Assembly: GCF_988242995.1 (NCBI RefSeq)
Contig: NZ_OZ547043.1
Direction: 5' to 3' (one strand)
Length of the DNA stretch: 64,000 nucleotides
Positions within the stretch are counted from its first letter, which is position 1, and every line of letters starts with the position of its first letter. Shown here one piece after another: positions 23,795-48,751 of the stretch. A program made the position numbers and the translations under genes. The notes under the pieces were generated by a model. That model was not told the DNA's origin and did no database searches. It saw nothing but the letters and a program-made list of their open reading frames with translations.

Positions 23795-23890
23795 ATAAAA
23801 AAATAGAGCCTGTCGACATCCGCCAGACTCTACAGTACACACAGCAGTGCATCCTCGTCTTAAATCCGGCCTGGTCTCCTCTGTGCCGGT
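23795..23890 (-). ncRNA. mcaS: Small regulatory RNA McaS (IsrA)
   Basis: Minus-strand sequence ACCGGCACAGAGGAGACCAGGCCGGA...GACAGGCUCUAUUUUUUUAUG with terminal hairpin and U-run, in abgR-smrA intergenic region as in K-12. Confidence 0.8.
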
Positions 23891-27267: not shown

Positions 27268-27389
27268 GCAGGTGAATGCAACGTCAAGCGATGGGCGTTG
27301 CGCTCCATATTGTCTTACTTCCTTTTTTGAATTACTGCATAGCACAATTGATTCGTACGACGCCGACTTTGATGAGTCGGCTTTTTTTT
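27268..27389 (+). ncRNA. fnrS: FNR-activated small RNA FnrS
   Basis: GCAGGUGAAUGCAACGUCAAGCGAUGGGCGUUGCGCUCCAUAUUGUCUUACUUCCUUUUUUGAAUUACUGCAUAGCACAAUUGAUUCGUACGACGCCGACUUUGAUGAGUCGGCUUUUUUUU; intrinsic terminator; zntB-dbpA intergenic. Confidence 0.85.
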
Positions 27390-30138: not shown

Positions 30139-31374
30139 CTACGATAACCGCGCATTCAACATGGCTATCTGTTCGTCGTTCATGTCATCAATCCACATAC
30201 CGTAAATTTCATACACCATCTGCGCAGTTTCATGCCCCATTTGGCTGGCTATAAATGCCGGGTTCGCTCCTGCCGTCAACAGCCAGCAGGCAAAAGTATG
30301 CCGCGTATGGTACGGATTACGGCGGCGAATACCAGCACGTTTTACTGCTGCATTCCACCTTGCCCCCAAACTGCTTACCGAGTAATAAGGTTTTTGTTTT
30401 CCGTTACACACCCTGGGCATGAAAACAAAATGCAGTTTTTGCTTTTCGGTTCTGCCGTACTCCCGATGATAAAAGGTGATTTCGCTTTTGCGATGATGCC
30501 CGGTCAGTTTGTATTGCTCCTTCAGTGCTTCAAGAGCAGGCTGCAGTAGTGTTACTGTTCGGATCCCGGCATTTGTTTTTGGGGGACCGAACATATCAAG
30601 TATCGTCAGGTTTCTTCTGACATTCACTATTCCCTTTTCGAGATCCACATCCTCCCACGCCAGAGCTGCCAGTTCCCCGTGACGAAGTCCTGAGTAAACG
30701 GCAAATTTCCACAAGTTCTGGCTCTGTCCTTTTTCACTTTCCATTAATGCATTGAATTCTGTTTTAGATAACGGATCAGGCTTTATTCTGTTTCGCTGTA
30801 ATTTTTTTACTCCTTCAAATGGTTTGGTTGATATAAATCCCGACTGATACGCAAAACGCAACAGCGAACAGAGCAGGGCGATATAGTTATCAACTGTGCG
30901 CACGGTTCTTCCTTTTTTGTTGGATCTTGGATTATCCAGGTAAAGCGTTTCTCCATGCAGCAGTTCATTCCGGTAGTTTAAGATATCGCTATAACGAATA
31001 TGTGATATCGGGGTACTTTCACAAATTATTATTCTGAGTGTTTTTAATTGTGATTTCGTTTTCTTCATTGTGTTTGTTGTTAACTCTGTCTCTTTAATTT
31101 TTGTCCAGATATCACAAAGCTCTCCGAACGTTTTTATGACTCTCGTTGTCACCATTTTTGCCCCAGTGCTGGACTGGGGAAAACGTCTTAAATACTCAAA
31201 TTCACCGGAGTTTATTTCATGAACTATCAGCGCTCTTAAATTTCCGGCCTTTTTAATATTACTGTTTGTAATCTCCCAGCCTTTTAATGTTTCCCGACAT
31301 CGTTTTCCTCGAAACATGAACCAGATGCGAATGTATCTACCTCTAATCTCGACACCTGTTGGTAATTTAGACAT
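30139..31374 (-). CDS. intR: Prophage tyrosine integrase
   Basis: 411 aa with C-terminal HTRHTFA...Y catalytic region. Confidence 0.92.
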   Translation of the reverse strand: MSKLPTGVEIRGRYIRIWFMFRGKRCRETLKGWEITNSNIKKAGNLRALIVHEINSGEFEYLRRFPQSSTGAKMVTTRVIKTFGELCDIWTKIKETELTTNTMKKTKSQLKTLRIIICESTPISHIRYSDILNYRNELLHGETLYLDNPRSNKKGRTVRTVDNYIALLCSLLRFAYQSGFISTKPFEGVKKLQRNRIKPDPLSKTEFNALMESEKGQSQNLWKFAVYSGLRHGELAALAWEDVDLEKGIVNVRRNLTILDMFGPPKTNAGIRTVTLLQPALEALKEQYKLTGHHRKSEITFYHREYGRTEKQKLHFVFMPRVCNGKQKPYYSVSSLGARWNAAVKRAGIRRRNPYHTRHTFACWLLTAGANPAFIASQMGHETAQMVYEIYGMWIDDMNDEQIAMLNARLS

Positions 31375-31375
31375 A

Positions 31376-31591
31376 TCATGAGTCTTTGATAAACTGATTT
31401 ATCTTTGGATAGTTGTACCAGATAATCCCTCGTTTGCTGTCTGGCTTACCTAAAGGAGATACTCGTTTGAAGTGGAAGCCCTCCACCCAACAGTTCTGGC
31501 GGTATGCTTCAATTTGTCTGGCCCCCAGACCAGTGCGAAGCATCAGGCCGTATTCAACCATCCACTCTTCATTAAAGATTACTTGTGCCAT
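31376..31591 (-). CDS. xisR: Prophage excisionase-like protein (YdaQ/XisR)
   Basis: 71 aa from [21 protein letters not shown], directly upstream of int. Confidence 0.8.
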
Positions 31592-31669
31592 CGCATCACC
31601 TCTGGCAGGCGCCAATGTTAGACTGAAATTGACGCCCGATGTTGATTATTAATAATCAGCTATGAAGTT

Positions 31670-31879
31670 TTAATTTGAATACAATGCAATTCTCGAGGAC
31701 TGAAGTTTCTCGCAATTAAAATTTATCAGTTTTACTTTCTGCTCTCTGGAAACGCCTGCTTCTTTTTTACCTGAGAGCATTTTTTCGCATTCTGATTTCG
31801 TTAGTTTAGATTTTGAATATCTTGTCCAGTTAGTAGGAGTGCCACCTTCCTTTTCAATAGTGGCGGTAATTTTATACAT
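31670..31879 (-). CDS. ydaC: Rac prophage protein YdaC (DUF1187)
   Basis: about 69 aa from MYKITATIEKEGG; start chosen among alternative Mets, uncertain. Confidence 0.6.
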   Translation of the reverse strand: MYKITATIEKEGGTPTNWTRYSKSKLTKSECEKMLSGKKEAGVSREQKVKLINFNCEKLQSSRIALYSN

Positions 31880-32066
31880 GAACACCTCCATTATTATTTC
31901 CAGTGGTTCGTTTATTCCATCTTTCGAGTGCTTCTTTTTCACTTCCACCATAACCGGTTCGGGATTCGCATCCGTTACACTTCGCTCGGTAATATCCTGA
32001 AATGGCTTTCACCGTTACTGATGGACAACCACAAAATGGACATGGTTTAACATTGTCATATCTCAT
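31872..32066 (-). CDS. ralR: Restriction alleviation protein RalR (Lar), type I TA toxin
   Basis: 64 aa MRYDNVKPCPFCGCPSVTVKAISGYYRAKCNGCESRTGY with zinc-ribbon Cys pairs. Confidence 0.85.
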   Translation of the reverse strand: MRYDNVKPCPFCGCPSVTVKAISGYYRAKCNGCESRTGYGGSEKEALERWNKRTTGNNNGGVHV

Positions 32067-32122
32067 AACTTTTCTCATAAAAAATATTTCAAGTTGGCGG
32101 TGCATTACACCGCCAGGCTGAA

Positions 32123-32932
32123 TTATTCCTCTGAATTATCGATTACACTGTATTCCCCGGTTAATACAGAGGAATCTGCAGGATCGATTGTCAGTGGTTC
32201 CTTTTCATCCATTGATACTGCACGCTGGATCTCAATTGATACGGGCAGATATTTGAACAGGCGACGAATAGCCGTTTTCTTTGCCATTTCTTCCCAGTGA
32301 GTTACCCACGGCCCGTTATTACCAGCTTTACTCAGGCTGCGCACCAGCTCAATCTGTTTGCGCGTCATAACTTCAAACTGAGTACCTCCGTCTTTCAGTC
32401 TTGCGACAGCATAGACGTGGGTAACCGGGGCATCTTCGTTTTCTCCCGGGCGGTGTATTAACTTTTCATCAAGGCCAAATTCGAAGCTAAACTCGTCACC
32501 TTCACGGACAACACGGGCTGACAGGCTGGCGATTTGACCAGAACGGCGAGCCAGATCAATCATGCCGCGATAGCCAATGATTAGCTGAACGTTCTTTTTA
32601 CCGCTCTTTTCGTTTTTATTACCAAAAGGCAGTAAATATGCATGACCGAGGGCGCTACCTGGCTCAAGTCCGAGCTGTGAACACTGTACGATCGCACTGA
32701 CAAAACTCATAGTGTCACAGTTTCCTAACGCCGGAACTTTACGAATTTCTGTAGTGGCGATACGGATCATACGTTCAGCCGTCATATGGCGTGGAAGAGC
32801 TGCTGCCAGTTGCTCTTTCATTGATGGCTGGTTAATAAAGCTAATCACGTCGCTATTTTTAACTGCTGCTGGTGCACGGTTTCCCTGAGTTTTTTGCAGA
32901 TCGGCTTTTGCGATTGGTGGTTGCTTAGTCAT
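32123..32932 (-). CDS. recT: Recombinase RecT (single-strand annealing protein)
   Basis: 269 aa from [21 protein letters not shown]. Confidence 0.93.
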
Positions 32933-35525
32933 TTGCATATTCCTTAGCCCAGCGGGGCAGTGATAATGTCTTAATAGCTGGCCATTCATCGGTATTCAGG
33001 CAGTCAGACAGGGTTCGCAGATTGCGGTGATATTCCTGTTGACCTGCCAGTTTTGCTTCTTCGCCCATCATGAAAATTTCAACCGGATAACGTCCGCATT
33101 CAATAGTTGTGCTGGCAACCAGAAAAACGAAAGTTGGCTGCACTCCAAACTGTGCTTCATAACCGTCACTGTAGAATGCATCCTGAACGTGATAGCGGTA
33201 GTCGTAATAAGCGGTTTTGAATCGTTGAATATCCGCCGTAGTTTTCACGTCCATGATCCAGTGAAATTCAGGGATAATTTTGTCCGGACGGCACCGACAC
33301 AAAATTCCTGTTTCAGGATCTTCCCAGTAAATTGATGATTCAGCGTGTCCGGCGCTTTCAACAAGCCATTGCCCCAGCGGCAAAGCCATAACGCTTTGAT
33401 ACATGAGTTCAATTTTCCGGCCTTCTTCCGCAGTGATAACCGTTTTTCCTGTGCTTGCGCATTCCATCAGAAACGCTTTCTCTTCTTCTTTTCCGGCGTT
33501 TGTACGGCGGTTAAATTCAGGTGCTACGATAAAGCGGTTACTGAATTCTTCCGGTTCAAGTACCCGGCAGTGGAAAGCAGTTCCTAAATCGAGCGTTTTT
33601 GTCTTTGTGGTGTCCACGGGGGCATTTTTACGCCACAAATATAGTGCCGGAGTATCAGCAATGTCATCGAGCTGAGACTTACTGATACCGGGACCCGCGT
33701 GGTAATTCTCATTCGAAATTCCGTAATAAATACCTGGCTCTATGTCTTCTACGATTACGGGATCTGCGACTTCGCCAGTTTCATCACTGCAATCGTGATG
33801 CGGATCGCTGCCAGCATTCTCATTGTGCGGATGTTCAGCGCCTTCCATTTCCTCCGGATCATTTTCCTTAGCTTCAACCTGACTCTCTTCATCGAATGTT
33901 TCCTGGTATGTTGCGTCGCCCATCACCGCACCACAGTCAGGGCAGTTATCCCCGCCAGTCTGGCCGCAGGCATTGCAGGCTATTTCCGGTTCCTGTTGCA
34001 CTACTGGCTCAGGTTGATTCATATCTGGGCTGGTTTTTTCCGTTTCTGGCTGGTTCTGGTACACACAATCGCGAGTCTGGATCCCCTTTACCCATTTCGG
34101 ATCGTTCGGGTCGCTAATTCCGTCAACAAATTCACCACGTGATGCAGCAAGCAATTTATCGGCATCGACAGGATTTTTTGATGGAATGTTTTTCCGGGCT
34201 TCATGGAGTTCTGCCCACAGTTCCTGATATTTCGCATCAACAGAATTTACCTGTGACTGAGCATCCAGCGGCTGCGTGTCCTGATGATGTTCAGTTGCGT
34301 CCGGTTCCATTGTTTCAGCCTCTCCCTGTTCAACTGCCGTTGTTCCAGATGGTTGCGGTTTTTCTTCATCATCCTGTTTTCCTTCTTCTGTTACTCGCTG
34401 CGGCATCGGGGCAGAGGAGCGACCGCAGGCAATATCCACGATTTCCGGATCAGGGTTGGCATGATCGGTTTCAGTCAGTACTTTGTTCAGATATTCAGTG
34501 ACGTGCGCGGGGATGACCTCGATCCCAATTGGTGCTTCTTTTACGGACGCAACCACGATGGCGCGGGAATAATCCAGCCCGCCAGGCATGGTGATGAATT
34601 TGTCGCGGAAAACAGAAAAGGGCGGTTTATTTTCAGCGATAATTTCCTCAATGCGTTTAGCGTGTGCCGGATGAAGGTTATAGATGTCCAGATCCATTGA
34701 ACGGGCCAGTACGCCAGTGGCTACGTCGCGCGCCAGTGACGTCAGATCGTGTACGAAACCTTCGCCGCGATCGGTGAGGTTTCCGCCGCCAGCATTAGCA
34801 CCGGAAGCCGTGCGAGTGATGTGTGAAACACGATTACCCTTCATCCACTCTTTTGTCAGCAGTCCTCGATCGGTGTAGTCAGCGTTCAGGTATGCTTCGA
34901 AAAAAGCAGTTATCAGTCCCAGGTTTGAATTACCAGGATTAGGGAAAACTTTGTCAGTGTCACGAACCAGTTTGTGGAGTTCGCGAATTTCCAGCGGGTC
35001 GAGCAGGCTGGTTTTGTGGGAAACAGCCAGGGCAGTAACAGCCGGTAGTTCTTCAGCCCGAGCAATGTGTAATGCCTGGAGTCCGTCGCGTGAAACGTGC
35101 GTTACCGGTTTTTCGCTGCCGTGTTGAGCAAGCCAACGAATGGGCAGTTCCTGGCCAGAAATTGGGAGTAGCATATTCTCCTCAATCTCAGTCATGTCTT
35201 CGCCGTTGACGTTGGTATTGCCTTGATAGTGAGCGTTGTCTGGTGCTGCTCCCGGTTTTAGTTCCCATGTCATGGAGTCTTTGCTGAGTTGATAGCGTTC
35301 ACTCCAGGTAAAATCGATCTCACCTTCAGTGGGCAGGTCATTAACGACAGGAAAATTCGTGGCAACAGCTTTAAAATAGCTGCTCAGTTTTTTACCTGAC
35401 TTAACGATCAGGTAGTCCAGAGTGGCACAGGTCGATTCAAAATCGTTGCTTGCCCACAGGACGACGTCAGGTTCACCGGATGATTTTTTCGCTTTCCGTA
35501 ACAGGAAGAGTGGTTTTGTGCTCAT
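32925..35525 (-). CDS. recE: Exodeoxyribonuclease VIII RecE
   Basis: 866 aa full-length; overlaps recT start. Confidence 0.93.
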
Positions 35526-35624: not shown

Positions 35625-36337
35625 TTGTGCACAGAAAACCCCCAGCTAGGCTGGGGGTTCCGGAAAGCTTTCAGCTTTGAGCCAGTTATTAAAACCCCTT
35701 TTGATTTGTTAAAACACTTTGCGGTCTGGCAACTGCAAGTGTCAAACAAGAAATCAAAAGGGGGTCCCAATGGGGAACGAAAAGAGCTTAGCGCACACCC
35801 GATGGAACTGTAAATATCACATAGTTTTTGCGCCAAAATACCGAAGACAGGTGTTCTACAGAGAGAAGCGTAGAGCAATAGGCAGTATTTTGAGAAAGCT
35901 GTGTGAGTGGAAAAGCGTACGGATTCTGGAAGCTGAATGCTGTGCAGATTATATCCATATGCTTGTGGAGATCCCGCCCAAAATGAGCGTATCCGGCTTT
36001 ATGGGATATCTGAAAGGGAAAAGCAGTCTGATGCTTTACGAGCAGTTTGGTGATTTGAAATTCAAATACAGGAACAGGGAGTTCTGGTGCAGAGGGTACT
36101 ACGTCGATACAGTGGGTAAGAACACGGCGAAGATACAGGATTACATAAAGCACCAGCTTGAAGAGGATAAAATGGGAGAGCAGTTATCGATTCCCTATCC
36201 GGGCAGCCCGTTTACGGGCCGTAAGTAACGAAGTTGGATGCAAATGTCAGATCGTGTGCGCCTGTTAGGGCGCGGCTGGTAAGAGAGCCTTATAGGCGCA
36301 TTTGAAAAACCTCCGGCTATGCCGGAGGATATTTATT
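35625..36337 (+). mobile_element. IS200-type insertion sequence, copy A
   Basis: About 711 bp near-identical to copy B; left-end hairpin CCCCCAGCTAGGCTGGGGG, right-end hairpin CCTCCGGCTATGCCGGAGG; contains tnpA. Confidence 0.9.
35770..36228 (+). CDS. tnpA: IS200/IS605 family Y1 (HUH) transposase TnpA
   Basis: 152 aa MGNEKSLAHTRWNCKYHIVFAPKYRRQVFY with HxH motif CADYIHMLVEIPP. Confidence 0.92.
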   Translation: MGNEKSLAHTRWNCKYHIVFAPKYRRQVFYREKRRAIGSILRKLCEWKSVRILEAECCADYIHMLVEIPPKMSVSGFMGYLKGKSSLMLYEQFGDLKFKYRNREFWCRGYYVDTVGKNTAKIQDYIKHQLEEDKMGEQLSIPYPGSPFTGRK

Positions 36338-47932: not shown

Positions 47933-48038
47933 TTTTTTACGCATAAACTGCTTCAATTCCGGTATGCTTCGCAAAGCTGTATCGCGAGGCGAACCAAGCG
48001 CATGAACTTTACCAGAACCCGCCATTGAGCGGGTTTTG

Positions 48039-48751
48039 TTGTGCACAGAAAACCCCCAGCTAGGCTGGGGGTTCCGGAAAGCTTTCAGCTTTGAGCCAGT
48101 TATTAAAACCCCTTTTGATTTGTTAAAACACTTTGCGGTCTGGCAACTGCAAGTGTCAAACAAGAAATCAAAAGGGGGTCCCAATGGGGAACGAAAAGAG
48201 CTTAGCGCACACCCGATGGAACTGTAAATATCACATAGTTTTTGCGCCAAAATACCGAAGACAGGTGTTCTACAGAGAGAAGCGTAGAGCAATAGGCAGT
48301 ATTTTGAGAAAGCTGTGTGAGTGGAAAAGCGTACGGATTCTGGAAGCTGAATGCTGTGCAGATTATATCCATATGCTTGTGGAGATCCCGCCCAAAATGA
48401 GCGTATCCGGCTTTATGGGATATCTGAAAGGGAAAAGCAGTCTGATGCTTTACGAGCAGTTTGGTGATTTGAAATTCAAATACAGGAACAGGGAGTTCTG
48501 GTGCAGAGGGTACTACGTCGATACAGTGGGTAAGAACACGGCGAAGATACAGGATTACATAAAGCACCAGCTTGAAGAGGATAAAATGGGAGAGCAGTTA
48601 TCGATTCCCTATCCGGGCAGCCCGTTTACGGGCCGTAAGTAACGAAGTTGGATGCAAATGTCAGATCGTGTGCGCCTGTTAGGGCGCGGCTGGTAAGAGA
48701 GCCTTATAGGCGCATTTGAAAAACCTCCGGCTATGCCGGAGGATATTTATT
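48039..48751 (+). mobile_element. IS200-type insertion sequence, copy B
   Basis: Near-identical to copy A, same orientation, same terminal hairpins. Confidence 0.9.
48184..48642 (+). CDS. tnpA: IS200/IS605 family Y1 transposase TnpA
   Basis: Identical 152 aa product to copy A. Confidence 0.92.
   Translation: MGNEKSLAHTRWNCKYHIVFAPKYRRQVFYREKRRAIGSILRKLCEWKSVRILEAECCADYIHMLVEIPPKMSVSGFMGYLKGKSSLMLYEQFGDLKFKYRNREFWCRGYYVDTVGKNTAKIQDYIKHQLEEDKMGEQLSIPYPGSPFTGRK

Follow-up and report, generated by a model that had tools for sequence, protein, structure and literature searches.

The RalR/RalA toxin-antitoxin locus of a Rac-type prophage and its overlap with the gene rcbA/ydaC

Organization of the ralR locus

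The window analyzed here, a stretch of 64,000 nucleotides, contains the left end of a Rac-type lambdoid prophage. The genes in and around the ralR locus are as follows:

30139-31374, minus strand: intR, at the left end of the Rac-type lambdoid prophage
31376-31591, minus strand: xisR, also at the left end of the prophage
31670-31879, minus strand: rcbA/ydaC, an ORF of 69 aa (DUF1187)
31695-31873, plus strand: ralA, gene for the 179-nt sRNA antitoxin (Rfam RF02694)
31872-32066, minus strand: ralR (lar), an ORF of 64 aa (Lar family)
32123-32932, minus strand: recT
32925-35525, minus strand: recE

The gene order, intR-xisR-rcbA-ralR-recT-recE, is the same as that of K-12. Positions 31670-32120, which the first-pass annotation had assigned to ralR, do include this gene, but rcbA/ydaC takes up the left 40% of the span, and the leader of ralR occupies its right end (32067-32120). 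The two minus-strand genes ralR and rcbA/ydaC share 8 nt and, judging from this overlap, are probably co-transcribed. RalA lies wholly inside rcbA/ydaC on the opposite strand and is convergent with ralR; its overlap with the ralR coding sequence is only 2 nt (31872-31873, within the ralR stop codon). Consequently, the first-pass description of RalA as an antisense RNA overlapping the ralR region is only partly right. At the level of the coding sequences, RalA is antisense to rcbA/ydaC rather than to ralR. At the level of the transcript, however, a native ralR-ydaC co-transcript would bear the full 179-nt complement of RalA, given the 8-nt gene overlap and the lack of a terminator between the genes.

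This arrangement allows a reading in which the plus-strand RNA acts chiefly in cis, as an antisense regulator of rcbA/ydaC or the entire co-transcript, with the 16-nt trans-pairing described below being secondary or seen only upon over-expression. The position of RalA, entirely inside ydaC on the other strand, and a native ralR mRNA that probably bears the full RalA complement both favor such a role, which we consider a real but tentative possibility; the published genetic experiments, which speak against it, are taken up with the pairing.

A base-by-base comparison finds ralR, RalA, and rcbA to be each 100% identical to K-12 MG1655. The ralR ORF is intact, as had been noted in the first pass, and its 64-aa product is identical to K-12 b1348. 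RalA matches K-12 ralA (b4714) at 179 of 179 positions, a comparison that had been set beforehand as the check for the antitoxin gene, and in NC_000913.3, b4714 occupies the corresponding place, at an unchanged offset from rcbA and ralR. By its sequence, then, the locus is the known RalR/RalA type I toxin-antitoxin pair of the Rac cryptic prophage, which has already been described in K-12 (Guo et al. 2014, PMC4041452; RF02694). The earlier statement that ralR is the toxin of a type I pair in Rac holds through this identity, toxicity having been published for the K-12 locus (PMC4041452). We have high confidence in the identity of the locus and moderate confidence in the published mechanism as physiology.

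The sequences, the gene order, and the 16-nt pairing elements are all those of the K-12 system; there is no difference within the system itself, and the differences that exist lie outside of it. In the span 31670-32120 there is a single one, at 32069, where the mRNA strand has G in place of the K-12 A, at position -3 of the ralR start. Elsewhere, the window differs from K-12 by SNPs in ttcA, recT, and recE and by an IS200-type insertion upstream of recE. A region of ~1.3 kb around the locus is matched in 1936 of 5426 complete E. coli genomes, with at least 99% identity in 1174.

Other features of the window can be noted in passing. The IS200-type element is ~700 bp long and is present in two copies (35627-36322 and 48035-48751), each having a Y1-transposase ORF and a match to Rfam STnc490 of 144.6 bits. 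The first copy, with its transposase ORF at 35719-36228 on the plus strand, is inserted between recE and racC relative to K-12 and may exert a polar effect on early-left transcription running into recE-recT-ralR. Upstream of the prophage there are two chromosomal sRNA genes, FnrS (27268-27385, plus strand, 134.8 bits) and McaS (23795-23890, minus strand, 111.6 bits), a placement that is expected for the ttcA-side flank in E. coli.

The RalR toxin

The RalR protein (64 aa, MRYDNVKPCPFCGC...GGVHV) matches the Pfam family Lar_restr_allev (PF14354) over residues 5-54, with 53.5 bits against a cut-off of 28.6. Its four cysteines (C9, C12, C30, and C33) have a zinc-ribbon arrangement. RalR is thus a member of the Lar/Ral restriction-alleviation proteins of lambdoid phages, with which it also shares an early-left position, near recombination genes and upstream of xis/int. 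It differs from them in its published activity: the 2014 paper moves RalR from restriction alleviation to a non-specific DNase toxin (PMC4041452).

Between recT and ralR, a strong hairpin is present on the minus strand (32075-32134), extending from the recT stop codon to just before the ralR start and ending with a run of six U. It is formed by an inverted repeat with the core GGCGGUG-UAAUG-CACCGCC and is identical in K-12. The predicted fold has a free energy of -26.3 kcal/mol (z = -5.19), and none of 200 shuffled sequences was equally stable. From this modeling, the hairpin resembles either a terminator that follows recT or a structure in the leader of ralR; in the plus-strand direction, any read-through from RalA might be limited by it.

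The RalA RNA

The RalA gene, which the first-pass annotation had expected on the opposite strand near ralR, is found at 31695-31873 on the plus strand as a full-length match to RF02694 (model positions 1-179 of 179) with 225.1 bits and E = 1e-54; the gathering score of this family is 170 bits. Elements that may bear on the ends of the RNA are the following:

31629-31656, plus strand: best σ70-like site of the promoter scan, TTGACG-16-AATAAT (10 of 12 matches), in the xisR-ydaC spacer
31680-31685, plus strand: nearer candidate -10-like sequence, TACAAT, without a good -35 element
31696-31733, plus strand: predicted RalA 5' stem-loop (fold and Rfam consensus)
31840-31873, plus strand: predicted RalA 3' hairpin (5-6 bp stem, 14-nt loop), then GGUAAUUUU (fold and Rfam consensus)

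The 5' end of RalA has been mapped by primer extension using plasmid-expressed RNA (PMC4041452). The promoter scan detects no strong σ70 site that is correctly spaced for this end; the best candidate, at 31629-31656, ends 39 nt upstream of it. Initiation from this site would extend the primary transcript by ~30 nt relative to the annotated RalA. The published 3' end is predicted, not mapped, from a hairpin whose 5-bp stem closes a loop of 14 nt and is followed by four U, with support from qRT-PCR amplicons (PMC4041452). This published 'terminator' corresponds to the 3' hairpin at 31840-31873, which is weak and atypical and has only four U. A terminator scan calls no intrinsic terminator within 31300-32300, the published one failing the usual criteria.

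The minimum free energy fold of RalA equals the Rfam consensus structure (-35.5 kcal/mol). Relative to shuffled sequence, this fold has no extra stability (z = -0.26), and the pairs of the 5' stem-loop are lost in the diverged homologues discussed below.

A fold no more stable than chance, a weak terminator, and the lack of a well-placed promoter would be expected if RalA were a product of pervasive antisense transcription of AT-rich prophage DNA, its complementarity to ralR being a by-product of codon usage and its antitoxin phenotype appearing only with plasmid over-expression. We regard this as unlikely. An independent study from 2025 saw RalA by RNA-seq under all of the conditions tested (PMC12266141), which argues against incidental transcription. 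The literature on independent validation of RalA consists of just this detection and a negative result: a transcriptome-wide map of RNase III cleavage finds none at ralR/ralA, in contrast to several other type I systems, including hok/sok, where sites were found in the same study (PMC6212723). The lack of RNase III cleavage also argues against abundant long duplexes at the locus, such as would be formed by a cis-antisense regulator.

Pairing of RalA with the ralR mRNA

RalA has been described as an sRNA that is encoded in trans and is complementary to the ralR mRNA over 16 nt (PMC4041452). The two elements are present here as:

31757-31772, plus strand: RalA pairing element, RalA nt 63-78, TGCTTCTTTTTTACCT (direct repeat D1)
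31929-31944, minus strand: ralR pairing element, nt 123-138 of the coding sequence (codons 41-46), AAGTGAAAAAGAAGCA (direct repeat)

The position of the RalA element fits the paper, which puts the start of the transcript 62 nt ahead of the repeat (PMC4041452). Across the 16 positions there are 14 Watson-Crick pairs and one G-U pair, including a stretch of 11 contiguous Watson-Crick pairs followed by the G-U pair and two more Watson-Crick pairs; the free energy of the duplex is -17.5 kcal/mol. Whole-length RNAduplex predictions for RalA and ralR give -75 to -84 kcal/mol for real and shuffled sequences alike. Since this procedure forces long, imperfect duplexes, it is uninformative, and the longest perfect complement and the in-register duplex of the 16-mers were used instead. 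A perfect complement of 11 nt between RalA and ralR is reached in only 3 of 300 dinucleotide shuffles of RalA (about 1%); thus, it is unlikely to arise by chance, which weighs against a fortuitous complementarity of a pervasive transcript.

The pairing element is a direct repeat that occurs in two sense genes, where it specifies Glu-Lys-Glu-Ala in ralR and Lys-Lys-Glu-Ala in ydaC. The core common to both, AA AAA GAA GCA, amounts to three identical, common codons plus two bases. Judged from these sequences, the 16-nt pairing is derived from the shared Lys-Glu-Ala codons of ralR and ydaC. An origin of this kind is also what would be expected if the complementarity had no function of its own. In addition, the ralR site lies ~120 nt into the coding sequence, an unusual spot for blocking the initiation of translation.

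The genetic evidence for the pairing is published. An arabinose-induced pBAD-ralA construct, which makes only the RNA from the strand opposite ydaC, rescues cells from RalR toxicity in trans (PMC4041452). Single and quadruple mutations in the seed weaken or abolish this rescue, and the matched M1/M1 combination restores it. RalA lowers the amount of RalR protein, the ralR mRNA not being lowered, its action requires Hfq, and a fosfomycin phenotype has been reported for the deletion (all PMC4041452). Compensatory mutations that restore function, together with the Hfq dependence and the deletion phenotype, are difficult to reconcile with a transcript that has no role. They also argue against a regulator that acts mainly in cis on ydaC: in the published work, pBAD-ralA neutralizes RalR made from a plasmid containing only the ralR coding sequence, and both the seed mutations and the compensating mutations behave according to the 16-nt model (PMC4041452). 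All of these functional tests used plasmids, and the insert of pCA24N-ralR-ralA ends just 25 nt upstream of the RalA +1 (PMC4041452); this leaves some weight with a phenotype that depends on over-expression.

Within the pairing element, a run of A6/T6 (31760-31771) constitutes a hotspot for slippage. In several E. coli ydaC alleles (clusters P0041, P0072, and P0075), a frameshift coincides precisely with the Lys-Lys codons, and an A7 run is seen in one viral locus. Slippage at this run would alter YdaC and the RalA seed together.

ydaC (rcbA) as a protein-coding gene

The paper describing RalA states that ydaC encodes no protein (PMC4041452). The sequence data point to the opposite. YdaC matches Pfam PF06688 (DUF1187) with 131.7 bits against a cut-off of 20.7. 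Among 9 loci from several genera, all of which (including all eight diverged homologues) retain an intact ORF, dN/dS is 0.05-0.3, with synonymous sites that are often saturated. The nucleotide differences fall mostly at third codon positions (e.g., 5/0/17 and 3/3/20 by codon position). A profile run against 1.84 billion representative proteins yields 106 members at E <=0.001 and 54 at E <=1e-10, and in an alignment of 58 sequences, residues W18, C31, F54, and C56 are kept down to 31% identity. Translation could begin from a well-placed ribosome binding site:

31883-31889, minus strand: ydaC Shine-Dalgarno sequence, GGAGGTG, 5 nt before the ATG and inside the last ralR codons

Finally, AlphaFold2 predicts with confidence a compact beta-beta-alpha-beta domain for YdaC (mean pLDDT of 80, with 33 residues at 90 or above), and a structural search with this model returns no significant match. 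On the strength of the DUF1187 match, the dN/dS values, the intact ORFs, the size of the family, the conserved residues, the Shine-Dalgarno sequence, and the predicted fold, ydaC/RcbA is a genuine protein-coding gene, contrary to the RalA paper (PMC4041452). What the published ydaC start and stop mutants establish is that antitoxin activity does not depend on the protein; they do not show that no protein is made. The annotation retains both rcbA and ralA. A gene that encodes a selected protein and has a strong Shine-Dalgarno sequence is also one worth regulating, which adds to the case for a cis-antisense role of the plus-strand RNA.

The name rcbA was given for a reduction in double-strand breaks (annotation; reference 34 of PMC4041452), and beyond the 2014 paper, nothing further was found in the literature on rcbA/ydaC (PMC4041452). 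This name, together with the purifying selection, the confident fold, and the presence of Lar-family neighbors in several lineages, might suggest that protection from RalR is due to the YdaC/RcbA protein, either as a protein antitoxin or as a factor that reduces DNA breaks, rather than to the RNA. Such an explanation is most improbable. Mutants of ydaC in which the ATG is changed to ACG or an early stop is introduced still neutralize RalR, the RNA-only pBAD construct of the opposite strand works as well (PMC4041452), and a Lar-family neighbor is missing from five of the eight diverged ydaC homologues. A role of YdaC as a protein antitoxin was therefore rejected, given the behavior of these published mutants and the occurrence of ydaC without ralR in the five loci.

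Conservation of RalA beyond the E. coli Rac prophage

A scan of viral contigs with RalR returned 80 near-identical copies of Rac with little diversity; useful divergence was obtained through homologues of YdaC. DNA was available for eight diverged homologues: L083, L084, L087 (Citrobacter braakii), L088, L089 (Izhakiella), and L090-L092 (Buttiauxella). In three of these (L084, L087, and L088), a Lar-family gene is located directly upstream of ydaC. The other five have unrelated neighbors, such as Rrf2 regulators, and no Lar/RalR gene, so that YdaC is not an obligate partner of RalR. The set with both genes outside of E. coli is small: three loci, two of which are close to each other. One of the three, the metagenomic L084, has a RalR homologue of 61 aa (1542-1727; Pfam Lar, 53.8 bits) directly upstream of the ydaC homologue, and this gene was missed by the source annotation.

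The three loci that combine the two genes lack the pairing: in register, the 16-mers match at 6-8 of 16 positions, with free energies of -4.5 to -6.9 kcal/mol, and nowhere does a perfect complement exceed 7-8 nt, which is the expectation from shuffling. The RF02694 model gives only 30-38 bits, with many broken pairs, on the diverged loci L083 and L084; RalA is not callable in diverged loci, as such scores are far below the threshold. The K-12 RalA structure was also examined for covariation, using a gap-free alignment anchored by the ydaC codons. Changes on both sides were found for 15 pairs (28 cells) versus 8-17 pairs (13-28 cells) for slid controls, so that covariation is not above that of the controls. 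The eight diverged homologues form only 50% of the K-12 RalA pairs versus 38-46% for the slid controls. From these comparisons, neither the RalA fold nor the pairing is conserved outside the E. coli Rac lineage, and the conservation that is seen in the RalA region is explained by coding constraint on ydaC.

Within the lineage, the situation is different. Among ~80 loci representing E. coli Rac variants, the ralR 16-mer is invariant and an 11-12-nt core of the RalA element is retained, including in the class with ~93% identity. Taken by sequence comparison, the antitoxin pairing seems to have been acquired recently and within this lineage only, rather than being an ancient feature of the ralR-ydaC pair. 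The loss of fold and pairing in diverged ralR-ydaC loci, the absence of covariation above the controls, and a coding constraint that accounts for the sequence conservation are all compatible with RalA as pervasive transcription; the core pairing kept across the E. coli Rac variants counts against it.

The same comparisons can be assembled into a picture of three overlapping genes, in which ydaC is a genuine, widely conserved phage protein and RalA is a young antisense transcript, with pairing derived from codons and confined to the E. coli Rac lineage. We consider this picture rather doubtful as a whole. In its strongest form, the antisense RNA would control ydaC or have no role, and the antitoxin activity would be limited to over-expression.

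[quoted passage not shown]

The locus is very probably best explained as a RalR/RalA type I toxin-antitoxin system that is identical to that of K-12 and functions by the published mechanism. An intact small toxin ORF and an antitoxin RNA complementary to the toxin mRNA, as in a type I pair, are both found here; none of the sequence elements is missing or damaged, and the complementarity is genuine. The published work on the identical sequence is the source for transcription, toxicity, Hfq dependence, and compensatory rescue. In this mechanism, the minus-strand ralR gene would produce a 64-aa, Lar-family zinc-ribbon protein, the published DNase toxin. The 179-nt RalA, whose transcription is known from the literature, would be made on the plus strand from inside ydaC, converging on ralR, and its nt 63-78 would pair in trans with nt 123-138 of the ralR mRNA. 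According to the published experiments, this Hfq-dependent pairing at ralR codons 41-46 would result in less RalR protein, with the level of the mRNA being kept.

Among other type I systems, two groups come closest to RalR/RalA. As in TisB/IstR-1, ShoB/OhsC, and ZorO/OrzO, the gene for the antitoxin RNA adjoins the toxin gene rather than lying opposite to it, and the complementarity is short (18-21 nt in those systems, 16 nt for RalA; PMC4041452). However, pairing in those systems is in the 5' UTR of the toxin, whereas in ralR it is ~120 nt inside the coding sequence, and those toxins are small membrane peptides, whereas RalR is a soluble zinc-ribbon protein. Furthermore, unlike these three systems, ralR and ralA converge on each other, and the RNA shares its DNA with a third gene, which encodes a protein. 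As in the cis-antisense type I systems, the RNA antitoxin lies opposite the toxin operon, and RalA is fully complementary to the presumed ralR-ydaC co-transcript. In the cis-antisense systems, however, there is substantial overlap with the toxin gene, while RalA overlaps ralR by only the 2 nt of its stop codon and overlaps rcbA/ydaC instead.

Implications

For the annotation of this strain, the value of the result is small: its Rac prophage holds an intact copy of the published toxin/antitoxin pair. The automated PGAP annotation labels ralR and rcbA, but usually without the ralA RNA gene. The comparative results bear more on the system itself. With a selected protein and an RNA encoded on opposite strands of the same DNA, and with the fold and pairing of the RNA not conserved, phenotypes of ydaC/ralA deletions are not assignable to the RNA alone. 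Thus, for those who use RalR/RalA as a model system, the presence of protein and RNA in the same DNA calls for caution.
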